From Geosiphon pyriformis uo1 (lineage: Eukaryota; Fungi; Glomeromycota), in contig JAAOMT010000718.1 of the NCBI GenBank assembly GCA_016748015.1, forward strand, positions 124,001 to 188,000: a stretch of DNA of 64,000 bases. The letters are read 5' to 3'. Below the pieces are notes generated by a model, which was not told the DNA's origin, did not search any database, and saw only the letters and a list, made by a program, of their open reading frames with translations. The position numbers and the translations under genes were made by a program. Shown here in pieces: positions 1,136 to 62,680 of this stretch. How positions within the stretch are numbered: position 1 is the stretch's first letter; every line of letters begins with the position of its first letter.

Positions 1136-2000
1136 TGTTACAGGTGATTATTTCTGCTGTCAAATTAAATAACAAACCTGTAACTTGGTGCTCAAAGCTA
1201 ATTGCAGTTGATATTGATCTGAAGGTTTAGTATCTGAAGGTTTTGGTTGAGTCCTTTGTATAATGAACAGAGATTCAATGGTGTCGATAGTAGATGTATC
1301 TTTCCAAGAGTTTTTCCAATTTCTTTCTCAGCGTGGTAGCCAGATTTAGTCTGGCAGTCGTGCCCTTCTGGTAAGCTATCTGATAATATATATAAAATCC
1401 TACTCTTATTTCTGGGTCTTTTACTAGGCTATCCTTGACGTCAATAACTCAGTACTTAATCTTTTAATTAATTAGTATACAACAAAAAATCAAAGAACAA
1501 AAGAAAATAAAATAAAAAAAAAATAAAAGAAAAAAAAGTAAAGAAAATAAGCCAAGGCAATTTGGTCCGTTAGTATCTCGTCAATAGCCGTGATCAAGAG
1601 CTATTGTTTTAGCGTGGTTAAGTATCAATTACTATCAACATAAAGTGTTGATAGTGGAGAGTGGATTGAGATATGGAATGATTATTTATTTGATGATTAG
1701 TTTCTTGGCTAAGAATTCTGTGGTATCAATTCTGTCTTTTCTGTTTCTAACACTACTGCTATATATACATAATTGAGATTCTTTAATTCCTCGATTCTTC
1801 ATGACAGGAATTCTGGAATTCCTGGAATCCTGCGATTCTGTTGAGAGGAATCCTGGAATTTTGGAATTCTGCAATCCTTCATTGAAAATCCTAAAATTCC
1901 TGGAATCTTGCAATTCCTGAGAGGAATCTTGGAATTCCATATTTACTATACCTACTTCTGATTGGCTAATAATTATGCTAAAATATTTCTATAAGTAACA
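1136..2000 (-). repeat. 3' LTR of Gypsy A (865 bp)
   Basis: Direct repeat of 10382-11246; TG...CA termini; adjacent to the PPT. Confidence 0.96.
1800..1940. repeat. Array of GGAAT(T/C)C(C/T) motifs in U3 of family A/C LTRs
   Basis: About ten degenerate copies of ggaattcc/ggaatcct. Also present at ~11050-11185, ~54090-54230 and ~63355-63495. Confidence 0.8.
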
Positions 2001-2016
2001 TTATTCCCTCCTTTTA
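2001..2016 (-). other. Polypurine tract of Gypsy A
   Basis: Minus strand TAAAAGGAGGGAATAA immediately before the 3' LTR. Same sequence in C at 54299-54314. Confidence 0.85.
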
Positions 2017-2643
2017 ATATTGAGTTCCATTGAAATCTAACTCATGTAATTCCCCCTCTTGAAGTATTTTCTGGATTTTGTTTTCAAGAATTACTTGTGT
2101 TATTTGGGTCTGTAATTCTTCAAATTGAGCATTGATGATTTTTCCCAATTGATTACTAGTCACCATATCCATTGCTCTGTTAAGCAATATTTCTGGTTTA
2201 TCCTGAAATGCTGTGTGTATTTAGTATATGGCTCGGGCTTGTGTGGATAAGTTGTTCTTTCCCAAAAAATGTTCTAATTGTTGTAGTATTCTTTTGTCGA
2301 ATAATCACTTTGTTTTATCCGTATATAGATTCTGAATATTTACATGTTGTCTCAAGTAAAAATAACAATAGTTTTGTGGAAATTGTTGTATCCACCAATT
2401 CCAAGTTTCTTTAGTCAACTCTTGATATAGTAACTCTTTTGTCGATTCTTTTATTGCTAATTTTACTTTCACCATGATTTTGTCCACAGTATTTTCAGTT
2501 TTCTTCTGTGTTCTGGATTGCAATGTCTTTCTAGTATCTTGATATTGAATAGTTTGTTAATTGATTGTAATCTCCATTTCCTGGTGTTGGATTAATTGAA
2601 AGAGTTGTTGTGCTAGTGAGTGAATGTTGTTTGTAATTTCCAT
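2014..2643 (-). pseudogene. Gypsy A ORF3 (extra 3' ORF, 210 codons, unknown function)
   Basis: MEITNNIHSLAQQLF...ELDFNGTQY*. The three internal stops can be explained by C>T changes. Same length in C; homologous to B 14910. Confidence 0.8.
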
Positions 2644-2697
2644 TTTTCTGATATTTCCTGTTGCGTCTACTATGTCTTTATATATTCTTTTGATGAA

Positions 2698-4080
2698 TCA
2701 ATTTAACGTGTTGTTGTCGATAATAATGATTGGTTCCAGATCTCATGGAATCTCATCTGGTTGGACTAGTATTCTCTGTACTCCTAATTGTGGAATATTA
2801 CTGGTAGATAGTAGTGTGATGTTGTAATATGGTTTCAGTCGATCTCCATGTGCTGCTTTGGTTAAAATTTTGTTATCCAATCTTAATTTGTAAGCTCCAT
2901 TTTCTAGAATTTTTTTTATATGAAATGGTCCATCTCATTTGGGGTCGAATTTTCCACTCCATTGTTTTTCCACTTTGGTATGATGTAGTAATACTTTGTC
3001 TCCAATCTTGAATTCAACTGGTTTGTCTGGTAGTTGACTATTATGTCTTTCTTTCTGTTTTTTTTGTGACTTTTGAATATTATCAGCTGCTCTTCTTTGT
3101 TTGTTTTCTAATGTTTCCATTAAGTCATATGTTCTTCTCAGCAATGTTTCTTGAAAATTTTCCTCTGTTATTGGTTCAGCTGGATATGTATTAATTTCTC
3201 TTTCTACTGGTAATGTTGCTATTCTCCCATACACTAATTTAAATGATGTTGTTTGTGTAGTATCTTGTTTCATTGTCTGATAAGCAAATAGTACTGATAG
3301 TATAAACAAATCCCAATTGTTCTGGTTTTTTTGGCTGAGCTTGGCTATTGCTTCACACAATGTTCTGTTGAATCTTTCTACTAATCCGTTGGTTTGTGGA
3401 TGGTATGGTGATAATAATGGTCTTTTGATTCCAAATCTTTGGCTCAATTTTGTTAATGTTTTGTTTACAAAATGAGTTCCTTGGTCTGATAATAATTCTT
3501 TTGGACATCCATATCGACAAATCAACTCCTGATGAATGAATTCGGCAACGGATTCTGCATTCACTTTTTGAATTGCTTTTGCCTCTGGCCATTTAGTGAG
3601 ATAGTCCATAGCTACTGCTATGTATCTGTTTCCTCTGCTGGTAACTGTTAATGGTCTGACTAAATCAATTCCCATATGGTCAAATGGTTGTCTCACTTTG
3701 ATTGGTCTTAATGGTTCACTGGGTCTTGTTTCTCCTTTTCACTGACAAGCATCACAATTTTGAACATATTGAATGATGTCTGGATACATTGATGGCCAAT
3801 AGTATTTTTTTCTAGTTCTTTTTATGGTTGCTTCTTTGTGAAAATGTCCTGCTGTTGGATTTGAGTGCATGTTGAATAATATTGTCTCTTTTTCTGGCTC
3901 CATAATTACTCTGGTTGGTTGATCTGGATCTCTTCTATTTTTCTGATAAAGTATATTTTGGTGAGTGATAAAATATTTTGATTGTTGTTTGATACTTCTT
4001 TGTTCCATATGAGATAAATTCTCCTTGAACTGTTGAGTATTTAGATAATGTTGCAATTGTTGATATTTTTGTATGTTCAT
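2698..4080 (-). pseudogene. Gypsy A integrase (separate ORF starting MNIQKYQQL)
   Basis: H..H/C..C zinc finger (MHSNPTAGH...CDACQ). rve core (GIDL, LSDQGTHF, YHPQTNGLVERFN). GPF-like C-terminal module. Confidence 0.92.
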
Positions 4081-4142
4081 CTTTTGTTGTATTTTCCGTT
4101 GGTATTGTTCTGGTTTTATTATATTTTTGGGTTGAAATGTTC

Positions 4143-5420
4143 TTAGATTTGTCTTATTCACAATAAGCCATCAGCATTTCCGTTGTCTTTTCCCTTTTTG
4201 TAATGTATAATATAATTGTATGATGCAAGTGCCATTTTTCATTTTGACTGTCTTCCATCTCCAAATTCTTGTTTTTGGAGTGATGTTAATCCCTTGTGAT
4301 CTGTGTATACTTCAAACTTCTGGCTCAAGTATTCTTTTCATTTCATAACGGCCCAGTATATTGCTAAGTGTTCTTGTTCCAGTGTTCCATAGTTCTTTTC
4401 GGCTGGTGTTAAATCTCTGCTGGCATATGCTACTGGATGTTCTCTGCCGTCCGATCCTCTCTGAGATAATACTGCTCCCAATGCTTGACTGGATACATCG
4501 GTGGTGATGATGAATAGTTTGCTGTAATCTGGATAGATCAGTACTGGAGCTTGGATGAGCTTTTTCCTCAGAATATCAAAAGCTTTTTGTTGACTTTCTG
4601 TTTATTCATATTTCGCATTTTTGTTTTGTAGTTGATTGAGTGGCTGCGCTATCTTGGAAAAGTTCTTGATAAAATGATGATAGTAACTGGCAAATCCCAA
4701 GAATGATTTCAGTTCTGTTATATTGGTTAGTACTGGAAAGTTCTTTACTATCTCTATTTTCTCTGGATCCGTTTTGATGCCATCTTTGCTGACTATGTGT
4801 CCTAAAAATTTGAGTTCTGTCTTGCCAAAGAAGCATTTTGTTGCATTTAATTTCAGTCTTGCTCTTCTTAGTCTTTCAAACACTTGTTGAAGATGATGAA
4901 AATGATCAACAAACGTTTTTGAGAATACATTGGTGTTGTCCAAGTATACAACTACTGATTTCCACAATAAGCCTGTGTAGACAATTTTCATTAGCCATTG
5001 GAAAGTTGCTGGGGCATTGGTTAAGCTAAATGGCATTACTTCAAATTTGAAATTCCCTTCTCTAGTAGTAAATGCTGTCTTTTTTTTGTCAGCTGGATTC
5101 ATGGCTACTTGCCAGTAACCACTGTCCAAATCTAATGTGGAGAACCATTTGTTCCCACCGAAAGCATCGAATAATTCCTGTATTCGTGAAGTTGGATAAC
5201 TGTCTCTATGAGTTACATCATTGAGTTTCCTGTAGTCTACACAAAACTGGATTTTTCCATTTTTCTTACAGATGAGTACCACTGGTAACAACCATGGACT
5301 CATTGATGGTTGAATTAGCCCATTGTCAAGCATTCTGTTTATCTCTTAACAAATAATCTCGTGGCTGGCTGGCAGCACTCTGTATGCTCTTTGTTTGATT
5401 GGTATTGCATCTCCAGTCTT
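4143..5420 (-). pseudogene. Gypsy A reverse transcriptase and RNase H
   Basis: FCVDYRKLN, LDLDSGYWQ, MPFSLTNAPATF, YLDN (YxDD), FLGH. RNase H TDVS..AYASR..NADGL, ending IRQI-TAA at 4143. Confidence 0.93.
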
Positions 5421-5974
5421 GATCTAATGTTGAATGATGTCAGTTCGGCCAAACTCATTTTTGCTGGCAAAGATGTTATTGAAATTGATGAGTAACATCT
5501 TGAGCTGCATACATTGGAGTGAATCTAAGTTTCCCATGTTCATTTGTTCCAATTGTTCTGGTTGGAGCAAATAACATTCATCTTGTCTATAGATTGTTTG
5601 TGATGTGATGTCAACATATCCACAAAGTTGTGGAAAGTCTGGAATGGGGTTTGGTGGTTGGTCTTCTATTTCTGTGGTTAAATATCCAATGGTGGTTCCT
5701 TCTGGTATGCTGATGACATTGCCAGTATTGTTGTAGATGAGAATTTTTATGCTGCTATAGCTTTTGGCTGGTATGTGGAGATTGATCAACCCAATCTCTC
5801 CCAATTCACAAAGAGTTGCTTCCGCTTCAAATATCTGTTCTTGCTCTTTTTCCTTCCTTTCTATTGCTAACATGTACTGGCTATATGGTGGGATGGAAAT
5901 AGCTTGACCAGTTGAAATAATTTCTTCTTGGCCAACAATTTCTTCCTCTGCTATGTTAATTAGTACATCTATTC

Positions 5975-6401
5975 TACCTGTGGATCTGAATCCCTGTATT
6001 CCTCTCACCGTTATTCCTAATTCCTCCCTCTTTCCTACTGATACTAATTGAGCTATTCTAACCAGAGGCAGAAATATTGCTTGTGCTATCTTTTCATTGG
6101 GCTCTATTACATAGGTCTTTTCTGAGTCATTTTGTAGCATAGTGATGATATTTCCTACATATCCCGCGTCAATTATTCCTCCTCTTATATTAATCCCTCT
6201 TTTCGCTAAACTACTCCTAGATGCTAATTGAACCATGGTTGTTGCCAGAATCTCTAGTACTATTCTCAGATCAATGTAGGTGTGTGAATGTGGTTTTAAT
6301 TTGATGGCATCTTTTCCTGGATATCTCAGATCAAACCCTGCATCAGTATTATGCACACGTTCTGGCATAATACCTTCCCCATTGTCACTATACCATTTCA
6401 A
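5975..6401 (-). pseudogene. dUTPase domain in Gypsy A pol
   Basis: All five trimeric dUTPase motifs: DAGFDL, RSSLA, GIIDAGYVG, KIAQAI, RGIQGFRSTG. Confidence 0.93.
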
Positions 6402-6579
6402 CTCTTGTTCCTTGGAGAGATTTGGTAGTGCAATGTATTGTTCATAGTTTAAATTGGAGTTTGTATCTGAGTTGGAATCATTGTCATTGTTGTTGCCATT
6501 TTGAGCGGAGCTTGAACTGTTGTTGTTATATTATTGTCGAAGTTTGAATCACAATTGATCGGCAATTCTGATTCTGATG

Positions 6580-7275
6580 CACAGCTGCTGATTGGTTCTT
6601 CCTCTTCCAGAATCATGTAGATCATGTGTGGTGGTGGATTGTAAATGAGGTCACACTTATCACAATACTGGAAGTCACAGAGAATTAGGCAGTGTTGACA
6701 TAGTCGAGTGTTCAACTGCTCTAACCATTGTTCTTGTTCTTCCCTTGTGGGTACTAATTCTTGGTAGTGTTCATGGAATTGTTCCGGATCCAGGAGGTTT
6801 ATGATGGGTTCTGCGTCCCAGTCAAGCTCTAAAGGTTCTGGGGGGTTGTCTTTGATCGTTTTTATCTCTTCTGGTGTTGCCCCTTCGATTTTTGCAAATG
6901 CCATTTGCCAAATTTTGTCGTCGTTATGTGGGCAACTGTCCAGTCACTGTACAGTTCTTCTTCAGACTGCTTCTATTGGAGTTCCTTTTCTTACCCAATC
7001 ACTTATTAGAATCATGTATTAACACAATATGTCGCACATTCCTCCACGTCCTGAAATGTTATGCCACATTCCTTTGTCCAAGAGAGTCTCTTCACAAGCT
7101 AAGCATGGCTGATTGTCCCATTTTCCTACTTGTTTTAGTCTTCCAAAGTGTTCAAGGATGCATGGGCAGCAATAGAACCTAGTTGCCATTGAATATTCCT
7201 TATCGTCCCCACAGCATGCACCCATTGACAACAATTTCTTGTCACAATTGACGCATATAAGCTTGGGTCGACAAT
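6580..7275 (-). other. Cys-rich (putative multi-zinc) region between protease and dUTPase
   Basis: CVNC..ACC..YCCPC..KWDNQPCLAC..CDILC..CQHCLILCDFQYCDKC. The pattern is conserved in B, C and the relic at 51.5-52.1 kb. Confidence 0.7.
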
Positions 7276-7599
7276 AGGTAGATTGTTGTGGTATAGTATA
7301 GGTGTTATAAGCAGTGGTGGTTTGAGTGGTCTCTTTTTCTTTTTCTTTTTCCTTCCCTTTATTTTCTTTGTTTTCTTCCCATTCCCAGCTTGAAGTCAGT
7401 TTGCTTTCATCATTGTCGGTCCATGTCAGGTCATCAGTTTCCCAGGTAAGTTCTTCTTTTTGTTTCCCTTTTTTCTTGTTGTTGTCATCTCAGGAGAGTA
7501 TTGGTGGCAGCTTATTGTGCTCTTCATCAGCCCATGATACTTGGTAGGCTTTTCAGGTAGGCTTTTCTTTCTCCTCCTCCAGCTCGATCAATAGTTTCT

Positions 7600-8010
7600 T
7601 TCTTGGAGAAGTTTTGAAATGGCCATATGTGGCTGGAACACATATGTGTTGGCCCTGATACATTAGCTGGAGTTCCTGGGTGTTCCAGTCTAATGTTGCA
7701 TTGACTTTGAATAGCCAGTCATTACCAACAAGAGCTTGGTATTGAGTGGCTTTTATTACTAGAACTTTAATGGGAGTCATGATGCCATTGACTTCAAAAG
7801 GGAAATCGTCGATTTCGCCGATTGGAGTTTTGGTCGCTCCATCAGCTGTGATGATTCTGGCACTGGCAGCTCGATCAACTCAGCAACCTAATTGATCCAT
7901 GAGTTGTCTAGTAATTATGCTGCCAGCTGATCCACTATCTAGGATGAGTTTGATGGGGTGACCATCAACTCTGGCATCCGTGTACATTGCTGTTATGAGT
8001 TTCTTTTCGA
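7600..8010 (-). pseudogene. Gypsy A aspartic protease
   Basis: LILDSGSAGSII active site; ALVGNDWL motif. Confidence 0.9.
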
Positions 8011-8199
8011 GAGCAGCTCTACTGAATAACGGTATTGGTGTGTTTTCTTCGAGTTTGAAAGGAAAGATGGCTGCTAGGAATTCATTACTAGAGATGGTTG
8101 CCGGTAGAATGGTGTTGGTAGGGATGTGCTGATTGGATTCTGTGTTGTTGGATGTGGCGTTTTCTGGGGTAACTAGGAGACTCAAATAATGTTAAGAAT

Positions 8200-10350
8200 T
8201 TGGGTTTTGGACACGACTGGTATCCAAATTCCGGGTGTGTAATCCTGATGGTGGGTTTAGCGAACTGGGGATCAGTTGGTGAACAACCATCGCCAATCTC
8301 CAGTTTTGAGTGACTCTGGATCGAAGGGGTTCTGGGTTGGTGTTTAAATTGGTTGGAATTGATAGATAATTTGTGGCTGCGGCTGATGAATCGGAGGTTG
8401 ATATACTGGTGGTTGATAGATTGGTTGCTGCGTCATGGGCAGGTAATTATTTCGATATTGGTCTTGACTCTGATTGAATAATGATTCGGAGTTTGGAACT
8501 GACAATTGGGGTTTCGATATTGATTTCCCGATTGTTGGTTATTTAGGTGCTGGCGATAGTCAATTTAGATATGTCTTTGTTTATCACAATAGTGGCAGAT
8601 ATGTATTTCCTGTTGCCACTGTTGATTGGTCAATGAAGATGAACGTGGTTGATTTTGGCCATGATTAGAATTTCCTTAATTATTGCGTTATTGTGGAGGC
8701 TGATAAATGGCATGATTGTCAGCTAAGTATCCTTCCAATCTTTTATTAATTGATTCACTGAACTTCTCCAATTTAGAATCCAATTCAGATGATCCATTCA
8801 TTACTAGGTTAATGGTTTGGGCGTGATTAGCCTCTGACTTGGCGGATTCAAAATCTCTGGTGTGTGTAACTGCATCTTGAAGGGTACCTGGATGCAATGA
8901 CTGTACATGTTGCAAGATGCTACTGCGCAGGCCACAAATAAACTGATTGAGTATCTGTGGTGCTGTGAAATAATTGGCGTCAATTGCTTGAATTTGGCAT
9001 AGGTTTTGATGGAAGCATCCCAGGTAAGTGGTGACTGCTTCAGTTTCTTCTTGTTTTATAGTGGTGAATGCATTAACTAGGCAATTGATGCTGTTATTGT
9101 TGCTGAAGTATCTTAGAAATTCCGCTTTGAAGGCATTGAAATCTTGTGGTTTATTAACCAAGCTTTGATACCATGAATTGGCAGTATTCTTGAGAAAGTA
9201 GGGAATGGCTTGCATTGCTCAAGCATCATTCCATCCGTTGGCTGTGATGGCTTTTTCTACATTGTTCAGCCATATTTGAGCATCATTCTCTTCGCCAGTA
9301 AAGTTGTCGAGTTTTGCAATTGGTGCGTAGACCATTGGATCTAAGTTAGGTGGTTGTGGTGGCTGTTAAAGCAGTTGTTGTTGTCCTGGCTGTTGGGGTG
9401 GTAGCTGAAGTGGCTGCTGTATGGGTTCAGCTATGGAATTAATCAGCAGTTGATTGATGACAATTACTGAAGGTAAGTTTTGCTGATTAATTAATTCGGG
9501 TTCTTGATTTCTTTGATTTGGTGGTGTTCGAATATTCGGAATTTTGATTTCTGGATTTTTTAACTATTGCTGAGTTTGAAGGTTCGGGGTTTCAACTTCC
9601 GGGTTTTCAGTGATTGGGTGCTGGTAAGTGAATTCTTGATCCTCTGATTCTTTTTCCTTCTTTTCTGATTCCGCTGCTTCCCACGAATCAGAAATTCTGA
9701 AATCTGGTGGAGGCAGTGATGATCAAAGTCCTGATGGAGTTGATAATCGTGAATTAAATCCCTCAAAGTATTCATCATATGGTCCTAACAATTCTGTTTT
9801 CCTTTGTCTACTTTGGAATAGGAATTGTCCAAATGCTGATGTTGCAGTTGATGTGAATGTGTCTGTTGATGATATGTTGATGGCGCTTCCAGGTGTATAG
9901 TGGTAGGATGGGTTGCTTGGAGATTCAACTCTGTTTTTTTTCCAAGCAGGTGGCTGTATTTTTCTGGGCATTACTACTGGTGTTTGTAATTTTCCCTTGC
10001 CTTTACTAGCGTATGTAATTGGATATCTTTGTTGAATGTGATGTTTAATTTCTTTGTTGATCTCAGTGATGATGGATGTGAAATTATAATTTGTTGGTAG
10101 GTTGGTGTTTTGAATTAATTTCTTATAGAAAGTTTCTCTTGCTGATTCAGTATTCACTGGTGTTCTTAATAAAGAGAAAATCTTTTCATTGACGTAGAAA
10201 TTGAAGGCTGATTTGGTGGATATATGATTGTGGTTTAATCCCAAGTATTGACAATAGTGTTGAAATAAGGATTTTGTGAATCCTAAATGGTTTGCTCCTA
10301 TAGTTTCTAATTCTGCCACTTTTGGTTTGGTGTTGTCGGTGCTGGTTTTC
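8200..10350 (-). pseudogene. Gypsy A gag with long N-terminal extension
   Basis: Capsid-like region MVYAPIAKLDNFTGE...NQFICGL. Decayed CCHC knuckle CHYCDKQRHI*IDY at ~8560-8600. The upstream 9723-10319 ORF is in the same frame. Confidence 0.85.
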
Positions 10351-10362
10351 TGTAGGATTATA

Positions 10363-10379
10363 CCTCACAAGGAGCACCA
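10363..10379 (-). other. Primer-binding site of Gypsy A (TGGTGCTCCTTGTGAGG), tRNA-Ile(UAU)-like
   Basis: TGG starts 2 nt after the 5' LTR. Complement resembles the eukaryotic tRNA-Ile(UAU) 3' end (...CCTCACnnGGAGCA-CCA). The tRNA identity is inferred from memory. Confidence 0.75.
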
Positions 10380-10381
10380 AA

Positions 10382-11246
10382 TGTTACAGGTGATTATTTC
10401 TGCTGTCAAATTAAATAACAAATCTGTAACTTGGTGCTCAAAGCTAATTGCAGTTGATATTGATCTGAAGGTTTAGTATTTGAAGGTTTTGGTTGAGTCT
10501 TTTGTATAATAGACAGAGATTCAATGGTGTCGATAGTAAATGTATCTTTCCAAGAGTTTTCCCAATTTTTTTCTCAGCGTGGTGGCCAGATTTAGTCTGG
10601 CAGTTATGCCCTTCTGGTAAGCTATCCGATAATATATATAAAATCTTACCCTTATTTCTGGGTCTTTTACTAGGCTATCCTTGACGTCAATAACTCAGTG
10701 CTTAATCTTTTAATCAATTAGTATACAACAAAAAATCAAAGAACAAAAGAAAATAAAATAAAGAAAAAATAAAAGAAAAAAAAGTAAAGAAAATAAGCCA
10801 AGGCAATTTGGTCCATTAGTATCTCGTCAATAGCCATGATCAAGAGCTATTGTTCCAGCATAGTTAAGTATTAATTACTATCAACATGAAGTGTTGATAG
10901 TGGAGAGTGAATTGAGGTATAGAATGATTATTTATTTGATGATTAGTTTCTTGGCTAAGGATTCTGTGGTATCAATTCTGTCTTTTCTGTTTCTAATACT
11001 ACTGCTATATATACATAATTGAGATTCCTCAATTTCTCGATTCTTCACGACAGGAATCCTGGAATTCCTGAAATCCTGCGATTCTGTTGAGAAGAATCCT
11101 GGAATTCTGGAATCTTGCAATCCCTCATTGGAAATCCTGAAATTTCTGGAATCCTGCAATTCCTGAAAGGAATCCTGGAATTCCACATTTACTATGTCTA
11201 CTTCTAATTGGCTAATAATTATGCTAAGATATTTCTATGAATAACA
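10382..11246 (-). repeat. 5' LTR of Gypsy A (865 bp)
   Basis: Direct repeat of 1136-2000; adjacent to the PBS. Confidence 0.96.
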
Positions 11247-13237: not shown

Positions 13238-14222
13238 TGTTATCAGAGGTTTTTGGTCTCTTTTCTTAAATGTTGTTAATGTTGATTTGTTGTGAATTCA
13301 CATTTCCAGGAAGTAGTTGGACCTCTAGTAACTGAATTTATCTTCAAATTATCTCCTATAATTTGAACTTGCTGGGTTTATGAGTGGAATGGCCAATTTT
13401 ATGCCAGTTGTTTTATGTAGTTATGTTATAGTAAACATCAACTCTTTCCCAGGAATTGCTCATCTGGAAGCTTACTAAAAATGTGTAGTTATTTTGCTGT
13501 GAAAGTCAACTCTTGTACAGGAATTTCATCTCTAGGCTACCCTAATGATTGTAATAAGAAAAGAAAAAAAAAATAAAAGAAATGTAAAAGAAAATAGAAT
13601 TTTGTCAAGAGAAATGTTTTCTATCCAGGCCTGGAGTCACTAATAGTTTACTGAAATTGGTAGCTAATCAATTTCGAAATGTTAGTTGGGTTTTTGGAGG
13701 TTTTTTTCAAGTACAATAATTAAAGAATTTGGTTTTTCGAATTTATTTGATATTTATTTCTTTTTGTGTGTATAGGAATGGTTCTAAGTAATAAATCTAA
13801 AGTAAGATACATTTTCTCGAAGAGAGATGCTCTTCTTTTATACAACTTGTCATAACACTATTCTATGAACTTGAACTTTGCTATTTTCTACAATTTCGCT
13901 GAACTAAAGATACATTTTGGCAAACTACAAGTTATTTCTGTGAACTATTAGATATTTCAGTGAACTATCAATTATTTCGGCAAATTTCTACAAATTTCAG
14001 CAAACTTTTGAATGTTACCTAGTTTGGGGTATTGCATGATTTGATCATCGCAATTAGGTTACATTTGTGTTGTGTACAAATTGGATTATTAATTAAATAA
14101 TAATTTCAAACATTTTGCTAATGTAATAAGTGATAATTTGAAATGATAATATATGCTAATTAATAATAGGATTTATAAGATAATTTCATGCTAAATAATA
14201 TCTCTAATTTCGTTTAGTAACA
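13238..14222 (-). repeat. 3' LTR of Gypsy B (985 bp)
   Basis: Direct repeat of 22109-23081. No evident similarity to A/C LTRs beyond the termini. Confidence 0.95.
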
Positions 14223-14910
14223 TAACTTCCTTCTCAAGACTGAGCTCTGTTGAAGTCCAAATACTGTCTGTAATTTCCAGATAGTAATCCACAATTATTA
14301 AAAAAATTTGGTCTGAAAATTGTTGAAATTTCAGTTCTGTAAGCTTTCCAATGTATTGAATCTTCAAAAGTCATAAAATTGGGTTTTGTATGACATTTTC
14401 ACAGGTGTGAAATAGGTCATAAAGTCTAAGAGCAGCTCTGAGCTTGTAGCAACTGTTTGTTGGTCCAGCTGTTGTCTTGAATTCGTTGTAGAGTTGTTTC
14501 TGAATAGCTTCTTTTGTGAGGTTTGCTGTTGTAAGTTCCAGTTTCTGTTCATAGAGTGTTTTTCCAATGTGAAAATATCTATAGATTGGAGGATATTCAG
14601 TGTTTTCCTCATTGAGACACAGTTGAAGTCTTTGTTGAATTGTAGCATTTGGTGGAATACTAATCAGAGTGAGCATTAAGTTTTCTTTTAAAGCAAGCTT
14701 TAAAAGTTCTGGCAGGTGAATTCCAGAATAACTTCTTGTGTTCTTCTTATATGGGTGATATTTTTGCAAATTTGGGGCTAAATTTGTAACTACTTCTGTT
14801 TGGATATAATTAATGTGGTTTCCAGTAACAGTAATGGATAATTCAGGTATTGTTTTTAAAGCTAACATTAGTTTTTGGGATAATTGTTGAATGTTTTGAG
14901 AAATAGTCAT
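14223..14910 (-). pseudogene. Gypsy B ORF3 (homolog of A/C ORF3)
   Basis: 179-aa ORF 14371-14910 continues past one TGA (…QYIGKLTELKFQQF…) into the PPT. Shares motifs with A ORF3. Confidence 0.8.
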
Positions 14911-15016
14911 TATAAGAGATTTGAAATAAAAGAAAATTATTTTTGGTGTATGGGTTTTTATGTTATTTTTGTTTTGATTGTTTCTAAATTATAAGAGAAT
15001 AACTAGTAAAATTAAA

Positions 15017-16402
15017 TTAAGTGTTCAGATTGAAAGATTGTTCAATGACAACTATTGGTTCTAAGTTTTGGGGAATATCTTCAGGATTGACTAAAGGGGA
15101 ATGTGTACCAATTTGTGGAATTAATGATTCAGGATTGTTTCTGGAATGATAGTGTTTCAAATGATCTCCATGTGCAACTTTTGTTAGGATTTTGTCATTA
15201 AGTCTTAGCTTGTATGATCTGTTGCCTAGGACTTTATAAATAAAGAATGGTTTATCCCATTTATTTTCAAATTTTCCACTCCATTGTTTTTCAGCTTTAG
15301 TTCTGTATAAGAGAACTTTGTTTCTGATTTTAAATTCATTGGTGACTGAAGGCAATTTGTCATCATGCTGTTCTTTTTGTCAAGCTTGAGAGTGTTCAAT
15401 ATGGGTGGCTACTATTCGTCATTTTCCTTCCAATGTGCTAAGCAGAGTGTAGGCTTTTCACTAAAGTGTTTCTTGGAAATTGTTTTCATCAATTGGTTGT
15501 GCTGGGTATGTTTCTACTGTAAAACTAATTGGTAATGTTGCTGTCCTTCCATAAGTTAAATCAAATGGTGTGTGTTTTGTGGTATTTTGTTTTAGTGTTC
15601 TGTATGTTAACAACACTGATGAAATAAAGATATCTCACTCTTGCTCAAAATCGGTTGAGACTTTGGCTAATGACTTACACAATGTTCTGTTAAAACGTTC
15701 CACAAGTCTATTTGTTTGTGGATGGTAGGATGAAAACAGAGGTCTTTTAATATTAAATCATTCGCAAATTTCTTGTATTAGGTTGTTTACAAAGTGTGTT
15801 CCCTGATCAGATAAAAGTTCAATTGGACATCCATGTCTACAAATGATGTCTTCATAGATGAAATTTGCTACTGATTTTGCATCTGCTCATTGAATGGCTC
15901 TGGCTTTGGGCCATTTAGTAAGATAGTCTACAGCTACTGCAATATAATGGTTTCCTTGAGTGGTGATAGATAGTGGTCCAACTAAATTGATACCAATTCA
16001 GTCAAAGGGTTGTCCAACTTTGATTGGATTTAATGGTTCAGTAGGGCATGTTCCTCCTCTTCTTTGACAATTATTATAAGATTCGACATATTTGTGAATG
16101 TCTTTTCTTATTCGAGGCCAAAAGTAGTATTCTAGTGTTCTTTGGGTGGTGCCATTTTTTCCGAAGTGTGCTGATGAAGAATCTGAGTGCATGTTGTATA
16201 ATATGGTTTCTTTTTCCTGTTCTTGTATTAATCTGAGTGATTTGTTTGGGTTTTTGAAATTTCGATAATAAATAATGTTGTTGTGTAGAAAATATTGTTT
16301 GGCTTGTTGTTGTAGTTGATGTTTTTCATCTGGAGACCAATCTGTTGGGATTGTTAATGTTTCCAAATATTGCTTGAGATTGTTGTAGTTTTTTGAATTC
16401 AT
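15017..16402 (-). pseudogene. Gypsy B integrase (separate ORF starting MNSKNY)
   Basis: MHSDSSSAHFG zinc finger; LSDQGTHF; YHPQTNRLVERFN; C-terminal KPFFIYKVLGNRSYKL. Confidence 0.92.
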
Positions 16403-16454
16403 TGTTTGTTGGCTCTTTTGGTTGGTTAAGTTGAGTATTGGTTTTTTGTGTTTT

Positions 16455-22107: not shown

Positions 22108-22108
22108 A

Positions 22109-36496: not shown

Positions 36497-36729
36497 CTAA
36501 CTTGATTTGCATTATAAGGGTGAGATCAAAAACTCTGATTGAAACCTACTATATAGATAGGAATTCAAATGAGTGACATGCTTCAATAAGAGGCCCAATT
36601 CTTTTTCTTGTTTTTTTTTTTCTTAAATAAAGTTTCTATACTAACCTACGGTAAGTCGAAAGTTTTTGAATTAATTTTTTCAATAATAATGATTTTTGTT
36701 TGTCGCAGATCTTAAAATTGATGGACATT

Positions 36730-53430: not shown

Positions 53431-54298
53431 TGTTACAGGTGATTATTTCTGCTGTTGAATTAAATAACAAATCCATAACTTGGTGCTCAAAGCTACTTCC
53501 GTGGATAAGGTTCTGTAAGTGTTGTATCTGAAGGTTTTAATGGAGTCCTTTGTATAATGGACAAAGATTCAATAGTGTCAATAGTAGATGTATTTTTCCA
53601 AGAGTTTTCCCAATTTTTTTCTCAGCATAGTGGCCAGATTTAGTCTGGCAGTCGTGCTCTTCTGGTAAGCTATCCGATAATATATAAAATTCTATCCTTA
53701 TTTTTGGGTCTTTTACTAGGCTATCTTTGACATCAATAACTCAGTGCTTAATTTTTTAATCAATAGTATACAACAACAAAATCAAAAAAAAGAAAATAAA
53801 ATAAAGAAAATAAAATAAAAAAAATAGAGAAAATAAGCCAAGGCAATTTGGTACGTTAGTATTTTATCAATAGCTGTGATCAAGAGCTATTGTTCCAGCG
53901 TGGTTAAGTATCAATTACTATCAACATGAAGTGTTGATAGTGAAGAGTGGTTTTGAGATATGAAATATTGATTTATTTAATGATTTATGTTCTGAGTTAA
54001 GGATTCTGTTGTATCAATTCTGTCTTTTCTGTTTCTAACACTACTGTTATATATACATAATTAAGATTTCTCAATTCCTCAATTCTTTACAACAGAAATC
54101 CTGGAATTTCTGTAATCCTGCGATTCCTATGAGAGGAATTCTGGAATTCTGGAATCCTGCAATCTCTTGTTGGGGAATCCTGAAATTCCTGGAATCCTGC
54201 AATTCCTGAAAAGAATCCTGAAATTCCACATTTACTATGTCTACTTCTGATTGGCTAATAATTATGCTAATATATTTCCTATATTTCTATAAGTAACA
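53431..54298 (-). repeat. 3' LTR of Gypsy C (868 bp)
   Basis: Direct repeat of 62709-63563; similar to the A LTRs. Confidence 0.95.
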
Positions 54299-54311: not shown

Positions 54312-54941
54312 TTAATATTGAGCTCTGTCAAAATTCAACTCATTTAATTCCTCCTCTTGAAGTATTTTCTGGATTTTGTTTTTGAGAATTACTTGTGTTA
54401 TTTGGGTCTGTAATTCTTTAAATTGAGTATTAGTGATCTTTCCCAATTGATTACTGGTAACCATATCTATTGCTTTGCTATGCAATATTTCTGGTCTATC
54501 CTGAAATGCTGTGTGTATTCAGTATATGGCTTGGACCTGTGTGATTAAGTTGTTCTTTCTCACAAAATGTTCTAATTGTTGTAGTATTCTTTTGTTAAAT
54601 AATTGCTTTGTTTTATCTGTATATAGATTCTAAATATTTATGTGTTGCCCCAAGTAAAAGTAACAATAATTTCTTGAAAATTGTTGTATCCACCAATTCC
54701 AAGTTTCTTTAGTCAGCTCTTAATATAGTGCCTCTTTTGTTGACTCTTTTATTGCTAATTTTACTTTCGCAATGATTTTGTCCACCATATTTTCAGTTTT
54801 CTTCTTTGTTCTGAGTTGTAATGTCTTTTTAATATCTTGATATCAAATGGTTTGTTGATTGATTGTAATCTCTATTTCCTGGTGTTGGATCAATTGAAAA
54901 AGTTGTTGTGCTAGTGAGTGAATATTGTCTGTAATTTCTAT
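54312..54941 (-). pseudogene. Gypsy C ORF3
   Basis: 630 nt, colinear with A 2014-2643; start codon decayed ATG>ATA. Confidence 0.8.
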
Positions 54942-54995: not shown

Positions 54996-56378
54996 TCAAT
55001 TTAACGTGTTGTTGTTGATAATAATGATTGGTTTCAAATCTTGTGGAATCTTATCTGGTTGAACTAGTATTCTTTGTACTCCTAATTGGGGAATATTACT
55101 GGTAGATGGTAGTGTGATGTTGTGATATGGTTTCAGTCGATCTCCATGTGCCACTTTGGTTAAAATTTTGTTATCCAATCTTAATTTGTAAGCTCCATTT
55201 CCTAGAATTTTTTCTATGTAAAATGGTTTGTCCCATATAGGGTTAAATTTTCCACTCCATTGTTTTTCCGCTTTGGTATGATGTAGTAATACTTTGTCTC
55301 CAATCTTGAATTCAACTGGTTTGTCTGGTAGTTGACTATTATGTCTTTCTTTCTGTTTTTCTTGTGACTTTTGAATATTATTAGCTGCTCTTTTTCATTT
55401 GTTTTCCAATGTTTCCATTAAGTCATATGTTCTTCTCAGCAATGTTTCTTGAAAATTTTCTTCTGTTATTGGTTCAGCTGGATATGTATTAATTTTTCTC
55501 TTTACTGATAACATTGCTGTTCTCCTATACACTAATTCAAATGGTGTTGCTTGTGTAGTATCTTGTTTTATTATCCGATAAGCAAATAATACTGATGGTA
55601 TGAACAAATCCCAATCATTCTGGTTTTCTTGGCTGAGCTTAGCTATTGCTTCACACAATGTTCTGTTGAATCTTTCTACTAATCCGTTGGTTTGTGGATG
55701 GTATGGTAATGATAATGGTCTCTTAATTCCGAATCTTTGGCTCAATTCTGTTAATGTTCTGTTCACAAAATGAGTTTTTTAGTCTGATAATAGTTCTTTT
55801 GGACATCCATGTTGACAAATCAAATCCTGATGAATGAATTTGGCAACGGATTCTGCATCTGCTCTTTGAATTGCTTTCGCCTCTGGCCATTTAGTGAGAT
55901 AGTCTATAGCTACTGCTATGTATCTGTTTCCTCTGCTGGTGATTGTTAATGGTCCAACTAAATCAATTCCAATACAGTCAAATAGTTGTCCCACTTTGAT
56001 TGGTCTTAACGGTTCACTGGGTTTCATACCTCCTCTTCGCTGACAGGCATTACAATTTTGAACATATTGGATGATGTCTGGATATATTGATGGCCAATAG
56101 TATCTTTTTCTGGTTCTTTCTATGGTTACTTCTTTATAAAAATGTTTTGCTGTTGGATTTGAGTGCATGTTGAATAATATTGTCTCTTTTTCTGGCTCTG
56201 TAATCACTCTGGTTGGTTGATCTGGATCTTTTCTATTTTTCCAATAAAGTATATTTTGGTGAGTAATAAAATATTTTGATTGTTGTTTGATACTTTTTCG
56301 TTCTGTTTGAGATAACTTCTCCTTGAACTGTTGAGTGTTTATATAATGTTGAAGTTGTTGATATTTTTGTATGTTCAT
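54996..56378 (-). pseudogene. Gypsy C integrase (separate ORF starting MNIQKYQQL)
   Basis: ORF pieces 55779-56378, 55395-55766 and 54996-55178. Confidence 0.92.
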
Positions 56379-56439: not shown

Positions 56440-59400
56440 TTAGATTTGTCTCATTTATGACAAACTATCAGCATTTCCGTTGTCTTTTCCTTTCTTATAG
56501 TGTATAGTATAAGTATATTGTGATAATACCATTTTCCATCTGGATTGGTGGCCATCATCAAATTTTTGCTTTTGAAGTGATGTTAATTTTTTATGATCTG
56601 TGTATATATCAAACTTTTGGCTCAAGTATTCATTCCACTTTATGACTGCCCAATAGATTGCTAAATGTTCTAATTCGGGTGTTCCATAGTTCTTTTCGGC
56701 TGGTGTTAAACCTCAGCTGGCATATGCTACTGGATGTTCTTTGCCATCTGGTCCCTTCTGAGATAGTACTGCTCCCAATGCTTGACCAGATGCATTGGTG
56801 GTGATAATGAATGGTTTGTTGTGATCTGTGTAGATCAGTACTAGAGCTTGAATGAGCTTTCTTTTCAGAATATCAAAAGCTTTTTGTTGATTTTTTATCC
56901 ATTCATATTTGGTATTTTTGGTTTGCAGATTATTGAGCAGTTGAACTATTTTTGAAAAGTTCTTTATAAAGTGTCGATAGTAGCTTGCAAATCCCAAGAA
57001 TAATTTCAATTTAATCACATTGGTTGGTATTGGAAAGTTCTTTACTATCTCTATTTTCTCTGGATCTGTTTTGATGCTGTCTTTGCTGACTATGTGTCCC
57101 AAGAATTTTAGTTCTGTCTTGCCAAAGAAGCACTTTGTTGCATTTAACTTTAGTCCTGCTCTTCTCAGTCTTTCGAACATTTGTTGAAGATGATAAAGAT
57201 GATCATCAAATGTTTTTGAGAATACATTGGTGTCGTCCAAGTATACAACTACTGATTTCCATAATAAGCCAGTATAAACAATTTCTATTAGCCATTGAAA
57301 AGTGGCTGGTGTATTGGTTAAACCAAATAGCATTACTTCAAATTCAAAATTCTCTTCTCTCATGGTGAATGCCGTCTTCTCTTTGTCAGCTGGATTCATG
57401 GCTACTTGTTAGTAACCACTGTCCAAATCTAATGTTGAGAACCATTTGTTTTTACCAAAAGCATTGAATAGTTTTTGTATTCGTGGAGTTGGATAGCTGT
57501 TTCCACGAGTTACACTATTTAGTTTTCTGTAGTCTACACAAAATCAGATCTTTCTATTTTTCTTTTGGACAAGTACTACTGGTGATGACCATGGGCTCAT
57601 TAATGGCTGAATTAACCCATTGTCAAGCATCTGGTTGATTTTTTGATGGATGATTTCATGGCTGGCTGGTGGTACTCTGTATGCTTACTGTTTGATGGGT
57701 ATTACATCTCCAGTATTGATCTGATGCTAGATAATATCAGTTTAGCCAAACTCATTTTTGCTGGCAAAGATGTCATTGAACTGGTTGAGCAACATCTTGA
57801 GTTGCATATGTTGGAGTGGATCTAAGTTTCTCATGTTCATTTGTTCCAATTGTTTTGGTTGGAGCAAATAACATTCACTTCGTCCATATATTGTTTGTGA
57901 TGTGATATCAACATATCCACAAAGTTGTGGAAAGTCTGAAATGGAGTTTGGTGGTTGATCCTCCATTTCAGTAGTTAAGTATTCAATAATGATTTCGGTG
58001 GGTATTTCTATGACATTTCCTGTATTGTTGTAGATGGAAATTTTGATATGGCTGTAATCTTTGGCTGGTATGTGGAGATTGATGAGTCCAACTTCTCCTA
58101 ATTCAAAAAGACTGGCTTTTGCTTCAAAAATTTGTGCTTGGTCTTTTTCCTTCTTTTCTATTGCTAGCATATACTGGTTATATGGTGAAATAGAAATAGC
58201 TTGACCAGTTGAGATAATTTCTTCTTGGCCAACAATTTTTTCCTCCACCATATTAACTGGTATATCTATTCTACCTATTGATCTGAATCCTTGTATTCCT
58301 TTCACTGTTATTCCTAATTTCTTTCTCTTTCTTACTGATACTAACTAAGCTATTCTAACCAGAAGCAGGAATATTGCCTGTGCTATCTTTTTGTTGGGCT
58401 CTATTATATAGGCCTTTTCTGAGTTATTTTGTAGTATAGCGATGATATTTCCTACATATTCTGTGTCAATTATTCCTCCTCTTATATTAATCCCTCTTTT
58501 TGCTAAACTACTTCTGGATGCTAATTGAACCATTGTTGTTGCCAGAATTTCTAGTGCTACTTTCAGATCAATGCAGGTGCATGAATGTGGTTCCAATTTG
58601 ATGGCTTCTGTTCCCGGATATCTCAGATCAAATTCTGCATCAGTATTGTGCACGCATTCTGGCATAATACCTTCATTATTATCGCTAAACTATTTCAGTT
58701 CTTGTTTCTTGGTGAGGTCAGAAAGCACAATATATTGTTCATAGCTTGAGTCAGAGTTTGAATCTGAGTTGATATCATTGTCATTGTTATTGCCATTTTA
58801 AATGGAACTGGAACTATTATTCTTGTTGTCATCGTTGTCGGGGTTTGAATCAGGATCGAGTGGCAATTCCGACTTCGATGCGCAGCTGCTGATTGGTTCT
58901 TCCTCTTCTGGGATTGTGTAGATCATGCATGATGGTGGATTGTAAATGAGGTCACAATTGTTACAATATTCAAAGTCACTGGGAATTAAACAATGGCGAC
59001 ACAGGCTTGTATTCAACTGTGCTAGTCATTGTTTTTGTTCCTCTCTAGTGGGTGCCAAGTTTTGGTAGTATTCATGGAACTTTTCTGGTTCCAAAAAATT
59101 TATGACTGGTTTTGCATCCCAGTTAAGCTCAATGGGTTTTGGTGGATTGTTTTTAATTGTCCTAATTTCTTCTGGCGACATGTCTTCAATTTTAGCGGTT
59201 GCCATCCACCATAATTCATTGTCATTGTGTGAACAACTGTCCAATCACTGTACAGCTCTTCTCCAGGTGGCTTCTATGAATGTTTCTTTCTCGACCCAGT
59301 TACTGATGAGAATCATGTATTGGCAGAACACATCGGATGTTCCTCCTCTCCCCAGAATGTCGTTCCACATTCTTTCATCTAGCAGGGTTTTCTCACAAAT

Positions 59401-62400
59401 GAAACAAGGTTGGTTATCCCATTTTCCTTGCCTCTTTGGTCATCCAAAGCATTCGAGTAAGCATGGATGACAGTAAAACTTTGTTGCGGTGTGGTATTCC
59501 TTATTGTCACTACAGCATGCACCCATTGACAACAGCTTCTTGCCACAATCAACGCATACAAGCCTTGGCCATCAATAATTAGATTGTTGTGGAGTGTAGT
59601 GGGTGTAGGAATTATAAATAGTGGTGGTTGGTAGTGTTCCTTCTTCTTTTTTTTTTCCTTTTCCCTTATCTTCGTTCTATTCCCAACTGGAAGTTTCTTC
59701 TTGTTCGTTGTCGGTCCAAGTCAGATTGTTGGTTTCCCAGGTAAGTTCAGTTGTCTGCTTTCTTTTCTCGTTGTTATCCCAAGAGAGTATTGGTGGCAGC
59801 TCATTGTGTTCTTCGTCAGCCCATGACACTTGGTAGGCTTCCCAGGTAGGTTTTGGTTTTTTTTCCTCAAAGTCAATTAATGGTGTTGTGGTGTTGGTAG
59901 CCTTGAAGTGGCCACACATTGCTGGTACACACGTGTGTTGCCCGTTCTGACTGAGTTGGAGCTCTTGTGTATTTCAATCCAGAGTGGCATTTGTCTTGGA
60001 CAGCCAGTCATTACCAACTAGAGCTTGGTATTGGGTGGCTTCCATAACGAGTACTTTGATTGGTACTATGATGCTGTTAATTTTGATTGGTAAGTCATCG
60101 ATTTCGCCGATTGGAGTCTTGGTCACTCTATTAGCCGTGATGATTCTGGTGCTAGCAGCTTGATCAACTCAGCGACCTAATTGATCCATGAGTTGTCATG
60201 TGATGATGCTGCCTACTAAACCACTGTCAAGAATTAGTTTGATATGATGTTCATCAATTTTTGCATCAGTGTACATGGCAGTAATTGGCTTTTCTTCCAG
60301 TGTAGCTCCACTAAATAATGGTGTGTTTGACAGTTTCTCAAGTTCGAATGGAAAAATGGCATCCAGTGATTCGTCGTTGATGACTGTTGCTGGTGGAATA
60401 TTGCTAGTATGTGTTTGTTGTTTTTGGGTGGGTTCCTGGTTGCTGGGTGAGGCATTTTTTGGGGTAACCAGGAGACTTAAATAGTTCTGAGAATTCGGGT
60501 TTTGGGGATTCCTGGTGCCTGAATTTCATTGACAAGATTCTGTTTGATTGAAGAAACTGGAGATTGGCTAATGAACTATCATCAACGATCTCCAGTTTTG
60601 CTGTGTGATTCTCGGCCTTTGGACTCCACTGGCCGGTAAGTTTTGTGGCAAAGTCTGAATCATTTGGGGTTGATAGATTGTTGGCGGTTGTGGTTGATAC
60701 ATTACCTGTGGCTGTTGCTGATAAATTGGGGCCATTGGTTGATAAATTGGCACTTGATATACTGGTGGTTGATAAATTGATTACTATGTTATTGGCAGGT
60801 AAGTAGTTTGATATTGTGTTGAGTTTGATTGATGATTCGGAGTTGAGAACTGGTAATCGAGTTTTTGATATTGATTTCCTGATCATTGATTATTTAAATG
60901 TTGGTGGCAGTCAATTTGAATATGTCCTTGTTTACCATAATAATGGCAGATATGTGTTTTTTGTTGCCACTGTTGATTGGTTGATGAAGATGGATGTGGT
61001 TAATTTTGGCCACGAGTAGAGCTTCCTTGATTGTTGTATTGTTGTGGAGGCTGATAAATGGCATGATTGTCAGTTAAGTATTCTTTTAATCTCTTATTAA
61101 TTGTTTCACTGAACTTCTCCAATTTGGAATCCAATTCAGATAATCCGTTCATTACTAGATTAATGACTTGGGCGTGGTTGGCCTCTGACTCCATGGATTC
61201 AAAATCTTTGGTGCATGTGACTGCATCTTGAAATGTGTCTGGATGCAATGGATGTACATATTGCAGGATGCTGTTGTGCAGACCACAGATAAACTGGTTA
61301 AGGATCTATGGTGCTGTGAAGTAGTTGGTGTCAATTGCTTGAATTTGGTGCAGATTTCGATAGAAGCATTCCAGATAAGTGGTGACTGCTTCAGTTTCTC
61401 TTTGTTTCATGGTGGTGAATGTGTTGACTAGGCAATTGATGCTGTTATTGTTGCTGAAGTATCTCAGGAATTCTACTTTGAAGGCATCAAAATCTTGTGG
61501 TTTATTAATCAAGCTCTGGTACCATGAATTAGCGGTATCCTTAAGAAAGTAGGGAATGGCTTGTATTACTTGGGCGTCATTCCATCTGTTGGCTGCAATA
61601 GTCTTTTCTATATTATTCAGCCATACTTGAGCATCATTCTCTTTGCCAGTAAAGTTGTCAAGTTTTGCAATTGGTGCATAGGCCATTGGATCTAAGTTGA
61701 GTGGTTGTGGTGGCTGTTGCTGGAGTTGTTGAAGAGGTAACAGTTGTTGGAGTGGTACTTGAGGTGGTTGAATTGGCTCACTGATAGGCTCAATTGGTGG
61801 TTGATCAATAACAATAACTGGAGGTAGGTTTTACTGATAAATTAACTCAGGGTTTTGATTTCTTTGATTTGGCGGAGTTTGAATATTCAGCATTTCAATT
61901 TCCAAATTTTCTAAATGTTGCTGAGTTTGAATGTTCAGGTTTTCTAGGATCAGATTTTGGTAATTAAATTCCTGATCCTCATCTTCTTTTTCTTTTGATT
62001 CAGTAATTTCTCAGGGACTGATGATTCTGAAATCTGGCTGATGAGGTGGTGATCGAAATCCTGATGGTGTTGGTAATCTTGATTTAAATCCTTCAAAATA
62101 ATTGCCATATGCTCCTAATAGTTTGTTTTTCTTTTGTTTACTCTGAAACGCAATTCTTGTTAGCAGTGTTTTTGTACTAGTGGATGCATCTGCTGATGCG
62201 ATGTTAATGGTACTTCTTGGTGTGTGATAGTATGATAGATATATTGGAGATTCAATTCTTTGTTTCTTCCAGTTAAGAATTTGTATTCCTTTGGGTGTTA
62301 CTGCTGGTGTCTGTAGTCTTCTCTTGCCCTTGTCCTGATAAGTAATAGGGAATGTCCTTTGTGTATATCTTTTAATTTCTTGGTTGATTTCTCTGATGAT

Positions 62401-62680
62401 GAGTGCAAAGCTGTGATTTCTTGGTAAGTTGGTGTGTTGGATTAGTTCCGAATAGAAATTTTCTCTTGCTAATTCAATGTCAACTGGTCTTCCTAAGAAA
62501 TCGGTAATTCTTTCATTGACATAGAAGTTGAAAGCTGATTCTGCTGGGTAATAGTTGTTGTTTAGGCCTAGCTGCTGGCTGTACTGTTAAAATAAGGATT
62601 TTGTGAATCCTAGATGGTTTGTCCCTATTATTTCTGATTCTGCCACTTTTGGTTTGGTGTTGTTGGTGCTGGTTCTCTGT
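56440..62680 (-). pseudogene. Gypsy C gag-PR-Cys-rich-dUTPase-RT-RNase H polyprotein
   Basis: ORF pieces starting at 61686, 61248, 60753, 59919, 59244, 59016, 58665, 58305 and 57399 share one frame. Ends MRQI-TAA at 56440. Confidence 0.93.

Follow-up and report, generated by a model that had tools for sequence, protein, structure and literature searches.

A conserved accessory gene behind a separate integrase reading frame in Ty3/Gypsy-type elements of Geosiphon pyriformis

LTR elements make up 41% of the Geosiphon pyriformis genome, according to the available part of PMC11952901. In a 64,000-nucleotide stretch of this genome (strain uo1, contig JAAOMT010000718.1, positions 124,001 to 188,000; hereafter the window), a reading frame named ORF3 is found between the integrase (IN) and the polypurine tract (PPT) of such elements. 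This raises the question of whether ORF3 is a gene at all, and if so, how its product is made and what it may do for the element. The original prediction, made from the sequence alone, described ORF3 as a retained, soluble, helical, non-env accessory protein shared by two divergent Gypsy families, with targeting, anti-silencing, or nucleic-acid binding as examples of what it might do. The present analysis finds that ORF3 is a conserved accessory gene that belongs to no recognized family, and that the Ty3/Gypsy-type lineage carrying it has an unusual plan of three frames. A separate IN reading frame, which was absent from the original prediction, changes the way in which ORF3 is read. The matter also touches the G. 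pyriformis gene catalogue, in which more than 200 annotated hypothetical proteins are wholly or partly ORF3 (115 and 120 listed matches with two queries).

Three LTR elements and their detached integrase

The minus strand of the window carries three full-length LTR elements, namely A (1136-11246), B (13238-23081), and C (53431-63563), all of which have TG...CA LTR ends, a PBS (TGGTGCTC), and a PPT (Table 1). The 4-bp target duplications are exact in B and C; in A, the two copies differ by two transitions. Identity between A and C is 82% along their whole length, and B is approximately 66-68% identical to A/C in parts of pol. Profile matches above the cut-off (PF19259, PF03732, PF00078, and PF00665) indicate a Ty3-type capsid and the order protease (PR), RT, RNase H (RH), IN, with protease and RNase H identified by motifs read from the sequence, and Ty3 RT is the closest solved-structure relative of the RT (E 3e-55). 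In C, the gag-to-RNase H stretch contains 26 stops in the coding frame versus 122 and 144 in the other two frames. Between protease and RT lies a dUTPase domain (5424-6530, 18383-18910, and 58345-58689), which in A matches PF00692 with E 1e-20. The linker ahead of it is rich in Cys, contains several CxxC pairs, and matches nothing in Pfam. A long N-terminal gag extension (9723-10364, 21022-22110, and 62011-62586), without a family match in A and B, changes faster than the capsid.

Table 1. Coordinates of the element features in the window and of RNase H-IN spacers in related elements
Feature	Position	Strand	Remarks
3' LTR of A	1136..2000	-	5' LTR 10382-11246, 94% identical; PBS TGGTGCTC behind 5' LTR
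GAGCTC-type motif (GAACTC in A) and polypurine tract	2001..2027	-	ORF3 stop overlaps tract
ORF3 of A	2014..2643	-	209 codons with 3 internal stops; may extend by 10 codons, to 2673
IN-ORF3 spacer of A	2644..2697	-	54 nt, in frame; upstream start site 2673-2671
Integrase ORF of A, stand-alone	2698..4080	-	own Met 4080; core rve match; terminal TGA 2700-2698
RNase H-IN spacer of A	4081..4142	-	62 nt, 8% G, no ATG; RNase H stop 4145-4143
gag-protease-dUTPase-RT-RNase H region of A	4143..10364	-	stops and small indels break frame; protease motif read from sequence
3' LTR of B	13238..14222	-	5' LTR 22109-23081, 93% identical; target duplication ATGT
ORF3 of B	14191..14910	-	239 codons, 1 internal stop; reads through PPT into 3' LTR
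IN-ORF3 spacer of B	14911..15016	-	106 nt, 2% G, out of frame
Integrase ORF of B, stand-alone	15017..16402	-	Met 16402; RNase H stop 16457-16455; 52-nt spacer
3' LTR of C	53431..54298	-	5' LTR 62709-63563, 90% identical; target duplication ACAT
ORF3 of C	54312..54941	-	209 codons with 4 internal stops; aligned start is ATA, in-frame ATG at 54971
Integrase ORF of C, stand-alone	54996..56378	-	Met 56378; RNase H stop 56442-56440; 61-nt spacer
gag-PR-dUTPase-RT-RH ORF of C, single frame	56440..62586	-	about 2040 codons
Other RNase H-IN spacers	window 16403-16454, 56379-56439; L001 775-798; L007 944-1251; L008 4487-4603		

In all six junctions available, i.e., those of A, B, and C and of the related elements L001, L007, and L008 outside the window, pol stops after RNase H and IN starts at its own Met. 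The pol stop lies 10, 11, 22, or 275 codons past the RNase H end motif; in the 275-codon case (L007, 116-943), the extended frame contains an acidic stretch and Cys/His clusters and has no Pfam match. The IN start is conserved as Met-x4-Tyr-x2-Leu, also in a further relative, L006, and an A is present at -3 in six of six printed starts. The RNase H-IN spacers measure 24-308 nt and take all three frame offsets, and those of A, B, C, and L001 contain 0-8% G and no ATG. Five of the seven members of the L007 integrase cluster are 409-aa stand-alone IN gene calls. At its other end, upstream of the IN stop, the IN tail gives an SH3-like match (PF24626, E 1e-5 to 1e-4, below the cut-off), and no Pfam match to a chromodomain was obtained in the IN frame.

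The plan of these elements is thus gag-PR-dUTPase-RT-RH / IN / ORF3, in three frames. ORF3 stands directly behind the detached IN in all five elements with both ends visible, a co-occurrence that may reflect shared descent only. Inspection by eye revealed neither a splice acceptor nor a frameshift signal ahead of IN or ORF3 that was consistent across all elements, and a conserved programmed frameshift does not fit because the frame offsets vary. The use of separate starts by IN and ORF3 would be the simplest reading, and judging from the reading frames it is very likely that the two are translated separately.

Among the substitutions between the LTRs of the three pairs, 175 of 177 are transitions, and the pairs differ at 47% of CpG sites and at 14-24% of CpA, CpT, and CpC sites. 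This pattern resembles hypermutation of the RIP type or driven by methylation in a broad sequence context. According to the available part of 10.1101/2021.03.30.436303, no RIP signatures were found in either Gigaspora margarita or Mucoromycotina. Outside the elements, CpG is not depleted at 36700-39600 (0.89 versus approximately 0.3 in the elements). This stretch is part of an island of ordinary host genes (36017-48983), presumably encoding aspartate-semialdehyde dehydrogenase, cytochrome b2, SGT1, MAF1, a phosphatase, and a cytochrome P450, to judge by their likeness. Based on ORF translations, B appears to be inserted in a decayed non-LTR (LINE-like) element and A adjoins similar sequence, the LINE-like stretches being 1-1135, 11247-13237, 23082-27014, and 27825-28079. 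A very AT-rich stretch at 50443-51204 contains imperfect 65-nt direct repeats and long palindromic self-matches.

ORF3 as a gene family and its predicted protein

For A and C, the original prediction gave open frames of 630 nt at 2643-2014 and 54941-54312; the positions and strand hold, but the frames are not open. For B, the start at 14910 was correctly placed, but the end near 14225 was not: the frame crosses the PPT and extends for some 10 codons within the 3' LTR, to a stop at 14193-14191, and the resulting length agrees with that of 239-aa database proteins. Stops occupy 5-12% of the stop-prone codons in ORF3 versus 4-28% in other parts of the elements, and since this rate is no higher than elsewhere, the breaks are ascribed to ordinary decay after insertion. 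A stop-free relative of the A ORF3, protein P0001, is 89% identical to it. Family A/C has a second in-frame start site 10 codons upstream (2673-2671 in A), which is ATG in C and in 74% of the summed contig depth for family A. The aligned blocks quoted earlier for A and B are present in the sequences, and the homology that they were taken to indicate is above chance, as seen from BLASTP (23% identity over 208 columns, E 1e-6), profile-profile comparison (E 2.3e-5 over 186 columns), and global alignment (score 103.5 versus a maximum of 49.6 in 200 codon shuffles). The ORF3s of B and L001 align with a score of 190.7 versus 26.7 for the best of 200 shuffles.

The original prediction confined ORF3 to two families, a restriction that is lifted by database searches. 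All 115 matches of the A query are G. pyriformis proteins, as are all 120 listed of the 202 matches of the B query, with up to approximately 90% identity in both cases. When 1.84 billion representatives were searched with a profile, 113 matched; one further search gave 16 matches, and look-ups covered 27 ORF3-family entries plus two more proteins. The word-index search admitted candidates of 0.55-1.75 times the query length; the representative search had no length limit, and its long matches look like gene-model chimeras of ORF3 and flanking transposon sequence. Ten lineages can be told apart, namely, six from Geosiphon (A, B, B', D, E, and F), three of metagenome proteins (P0263, P0267/P0321, and the P0351 group), and L007. 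They are mostly 20-40% identical; nine are linked by pairwise phmmer (E 1e-103 to 1e-2, within this small set), and L007 joins weakly (best 6e-4). Near-full-length, stop-free copies (at least 90% of the reference covered, no gap of 5 or more) among the fetched proteins comprise 47 of B type, 34 of B' type, and 2 of A type; as these are gene models, short stops may in part have been spliced out. In B' and E, ORF3 is likewise placed behind IN by chimeric gene models (P0231, P0242, P0258, P0276, and P0283), in which the IN tail continues into ORF3.

Relatives with their surroundings intact were found in metagenomes, where two of 324 candidate stretches were confirmed. In the first, L001, RT-RH and a stop are followed by an IN that has its own Met and a single internal TGA; after a spacer of 316 nt comes an ORF3 of 230 codons, which is intact and continues through the PPT into the LTR. 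The second, L002, is another copy of the LTR end of L001. A scan of prokaryote bins for IN confirmed four of 47 stretches. The IN cores of L006-L008 are 60-64% identical, and these three, filed in bacterial MAGs, are likely LTR-retrotransposon fragments present as eukaryotic contamination; the L007 integrase carries the annotation Bacteroidetes transposase. In L007, an intact IN of 409 aa is followed by a U-rich spacer of 131 nt and then by an ORF of 146 codons, which ends at the PPT. On the family profile this ORF scores 12.9 bits versus 9.6 for the best shuffle (above 2000 of 2000) and matches with E 0.0014 over 45 columns, and it is probably a distant ORF3 relative lacking the N-terminal module. 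Behind the L007 LTR (approximately 3064-3457) come a PBS and another gag, which means that one LTR is shared by elements in tandem. The contigs of L006 and L008 stop short of the ORF3 position. Scans of viral contigs found three distant integrases without an ORF3 signal and no ORF3 relative, two single IN queries were without a match there, and phage records gave no match.

Taken as a protein-coding sequence, ORF3 is almost certainly a real gene: it is recognizable between families in which synonymous sites are at the random level (pS 0.66-0.85). Ratios of selection have to be read with care. The transition-only ratio for A versus C is 0.74 in ORF3 and 1.03 and 1.09 in its other frames, but the IN core gives 1.24, which leaves this test without power. 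Between-family dN/dS is equally low in shuffled controls and hence biased, and that figure was set aside. For one diverged contig over the B ORF3, 14 of 21 differences are listed; four are private to the window copy, all of them non-synonymous, and of the other ten, eight are at third positions and seven are synonymous.

At its 3' end, ORF3 runs into a conserved DNA motif. GAGCTC, or a form one transition off, is found at 2022-2027, 14242-14247, and 54320-54325, at approximately 3092-3097 in L001, and at approximately 3039-3044 in L007, i.e., this palindrome is kept 19-21 nt ahead of the 3' LTR in very distant elements. Adjoining the PPT, it is a candidate cis signal. The last codons of ORF3 cross GAGCTC-PPT-TGTTAC in different frames in A/C and B/L001, which implies that the tail is kept as DNA.

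The earlier description of the product as soluble, mostly helical, and not an env is supported. A membrane segment is usually called at a Kyte-Doolittle mean of approximately 1.6; the best 19-residue mean is 0.27-1.29 in all eight proteins analyzed, and the ORF3 proteins have no hydrophobic N-terminal stretch. The pI is above 7.7 in six of the eight, the other two being acidic (5.4 and 5.9). An AlphaFold model from 24 sequences (pLDDT 74.9, pTM 0.65) has a helix and hairpin at residues 1-36 (pLDDT 54-66), a disordered linker at 39-49, and a helical domain at 51-203, with pLDDT 72-92 over residues 51-190. The protein is thus predicted to have three parts: a helix and hairpin at the N-terminus, a linker that is basic and disordered, and a compact domain made of helices. 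Its conserved core reads Y-x-Y/F-x-I/L-G, K/T-N, R-L/I-Y-x2-F, and G-K-I/L-T-x3-F, with the Arg of R-[LI]-Y conserved in at least 90% of the family alignment. In six of the ten lineages, a PY-NLS-like motif (R/K/H-x2-5-PY, the form given in the available part of PMC2408616) falls at residues 41-55, in the low-confidence linker. The chance of this is 2-6% in each lineage, and the six are kin and therefore not independent; the motif is missing in A/C and in three other lineages, one of them a fragment.

Searches of ORF3 against Pfam, PHROGs, and NCBIfam returned nothing near the cut-off and no recognized DNA- or RNA-binding domain. The best NCBIfam match was FtsQ (E 5e-4, 19.5 bits versus a cut-off of 366), and no profile of a chromodomain or a routine IN C-terminal domain matched, in line with the original prediction. 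By sequence against the PDB, importin-5 appeared at E 0.09 with the first profile, and a wider one matched nothing. Structure matches of a first fold (pLDDT 44) were noise. With the second fold, Foldseek returned nothing at E 0.001 (best E 0.85 in the PDB and 0.16 among viral structures), VIA-align wide gave none of 48,161 at Z 5 (best Z 4.0, rmsd 5.3, 76 residues aligned, with residues 1-47 barely covered), and another structure comparison reached Z 2.8 at best; the missing match does not show that the fold is new. In the ESM Atlas, the whole B protein had no match at 0.9. For the P0267 core, the matches were two Mucoromycota clusters (0.94 and 0.93), a cluster of closterovirus coat proteins (0.92), and a repressor of translation from a phage (0.90). 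All of these are no more than leads, the Mucoromycota clusters pointing to a possibly wider ORF3 family.

Possible roles of ORF3

The reading preferred here, tentatively and at somewhat less than an even chance, is that the product of ORF3 is made separately and acts in the nucleus as a trans-regulator of how its own element is expressed. IN and ORF3 would be translated from their own AUGs, either on shorter or spliced RNAs or by reinitiation over the G-poor leaders. The ORF3 protein would then be imported into the nucleus via the PY-type signal in its linker and act in trans by binding the element's own DNA or RNA. In this way it could determine how strongly the downstream genes are expressed and keep full-length gag-pol RNA and IN-producing RNA in balance, a role that may be likened to that of the 3'-end accessory regulators of complex retroviruses, e.g., foamy virus Tas and lentiviral Rev. 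A nuclear and nucleic-acid role is weakly suggested by sequence features. More doubtful is the wider proposal of a complex-retrovirus-like three-gene program, in which IN is freed from pol and the ORF3 protein, encoded across the PPT and with a fold unmatched in the PDB, would serve as a switch or adaptor for the split cycle. Two alternatives, an integrase cofactor and an anti-silencing factor, fit nearly as well as the trans-regulator.

An IN made outside the Gag-Pol polyprotein needs another route to the particle or to chromatin, and ORF3 might provide it by binding IN and either carrying it to the particle or tethering it to chromatin in place of a chromodomain. This would suit the detachment of IN in every junction, the position of ORF3 directly 3' of IN in all five complete 3' ends, and an IN that ends in an SH3-like domain instead of a chromodomain, and the nuclear signal is equally compatible. 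A partner of IN is nevertheless a rather unlikely identity for a protein that diverges much faster than IN does (A and L001 are 32% identical in ORF3 and 60% in IN), and L007 has a conserved IN but no N-terminal module of ORF3.

The same rapid divergence would suit an arms race, with ORF3 counteracting cytosine methylation, C-to-T hypermutation, or small RNAs. Host pressure on these elements is strong, as the almost exclusive transitions between their LTRs indicate, and small RNAs from Gypsy loci are reported for Rhizophagus in the available part of 10.1101/2021.03.30.436303. Such an anti-silencing function is judged unlikely, given that ORF3 has no likeness to profiled suppressors and that its stop rate, about that of other parts of the element, gives no sign of local protection.

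It is very improbable that ORF3 serves to spread the element between nuclei or hyphae, as an unusual kind of env, movement, or coat-like protein. Its position is env-like and the closterovirus coat protein cluster of the ESM Atlas shares 146 of 256 features with it, but none of the eight proteins has a membrane segment and Closter_coat matched none of the 24 alignment members at E 0.1.

Highly improbable, too, is an ORF3 that extends the C-terminus of IN, whether by stop readthrough or by fusion through an ancestral CGA, as the original prediction had considered. It had rightly noted that in A and C, ORF3 is in frame with IN behind one TGA and 18 open codons, and in one partial gene model among those fetched (P0081), no stop separates the IN tail from ORF3. 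It had also noted that ORF3 is 106 nt from IN and out of frame in B, and the IN-ORF3 spacers of A, C, B, L001, and L007 (54, 54, 106, 316, and 131 nt) indeed take three frame offsets. In family A, the IN stop is TAA in 27,829 of 86,756 of the summed contig depth (32%; one DNA run), and no change at 2700, the first base of this stop, was seen at the 3% threshold in the 40 of 41 rows listed, so that no CGA row is among them; a copy-specific stop 45 nt further upstream is open in 53% of the same contigs. These stop data, together with the out-of-frame spacing of 106-316 nt in B, L001, and L007, make an IN-ORF3 fusion unlikely.

Hardly any credence is given to a stretch kept solely as a cis-acting DNA or RNA signal with an incidental protein: the frame-independent GAGCTC-PPT-TGTTAC block would fit, but it is limited to the last 10-25 codons, whereas the other 200 are conserved as protein over randomized synonymous sites and residues 51-190 fold with confidence in the model.

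Comparison with known systems

Extra ORFs at the 3' end of LTR elements are already known in kind, and few have a function. The detached IN raises a question of its own, namely, how it is made and how it reaches the particle without a polyprotein, and ORF3 is the obvious candidate for serving it. Complex retroviruses encode small soluble products near or into the 3' LTR, such as foamy virus Tas, Rev, and Nef (Nef overlaps U3), and their enzymes do not all come from one polyprotein. No sequence or fold link of ORF3 to Tas, Rev, or Nef was found, and the likeness is one of position and logic only. Tat, Rev, and Nef are mentioned in the available part of PMC7264820. Among the available papers on such elements and their host, none was found that describes this ORF3 or a fungal Gypsy element whose integrase has an ORF of its own; these families may already be part of the curated TE library used in PMC11952901.

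Among fungal Gypsy elements, PosPlaTy3-5 and Tmt1 also have a dUTPase between PR and RT according to the accessible part of PMC2864245, where they are surveyed as chromoviruses; they are likened here by description and not by sequence. According to a figure legend in the same part, some element also has an extra ORF whose function is unknown. LTR elements of bdelloid rotifers likewise bear a dUTPase and a non-env ORF3, but those ORF3s are a GDSL esterase and a DEDDy exonuclease (PMC5408684, as far as its available text goes), whereas the present ORF3 belongs to no Pfam family, and none of its 24 alignment members matches the GDSL esterase or DEDDy exonuclease families at E 0.1. Grande also has a conserved extra gene at its 3' end, whose product, in the part of the source available, is nuclear, expressed from its own promoter, and proposed to be regulatory. 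Compared with Grande-type extra genes, ORF3 is on the sense strand, lacks membrane segments, and accompanies a detached IN, and profile scans gave no sequence link.

With the Metaviridae (Ty3/Gypsy), the elements have in common the LTRs, PBS, PPT, Ty3-type capsid, and the order PR-RT-RH-IN (PMC7879559). In the ICTV profile of that family, the number of genes is one to three, IN is part of pol, and the third gene is env (PMC7879559). In the elements described here, IN is a separate ORF, the third gene encodes a protein without a membrane segment, and a dUTPase lies between PR and RT. With IN outside pol, they are filed as Ty3/Gypsy-type elements and not as canonical Metaviridae.
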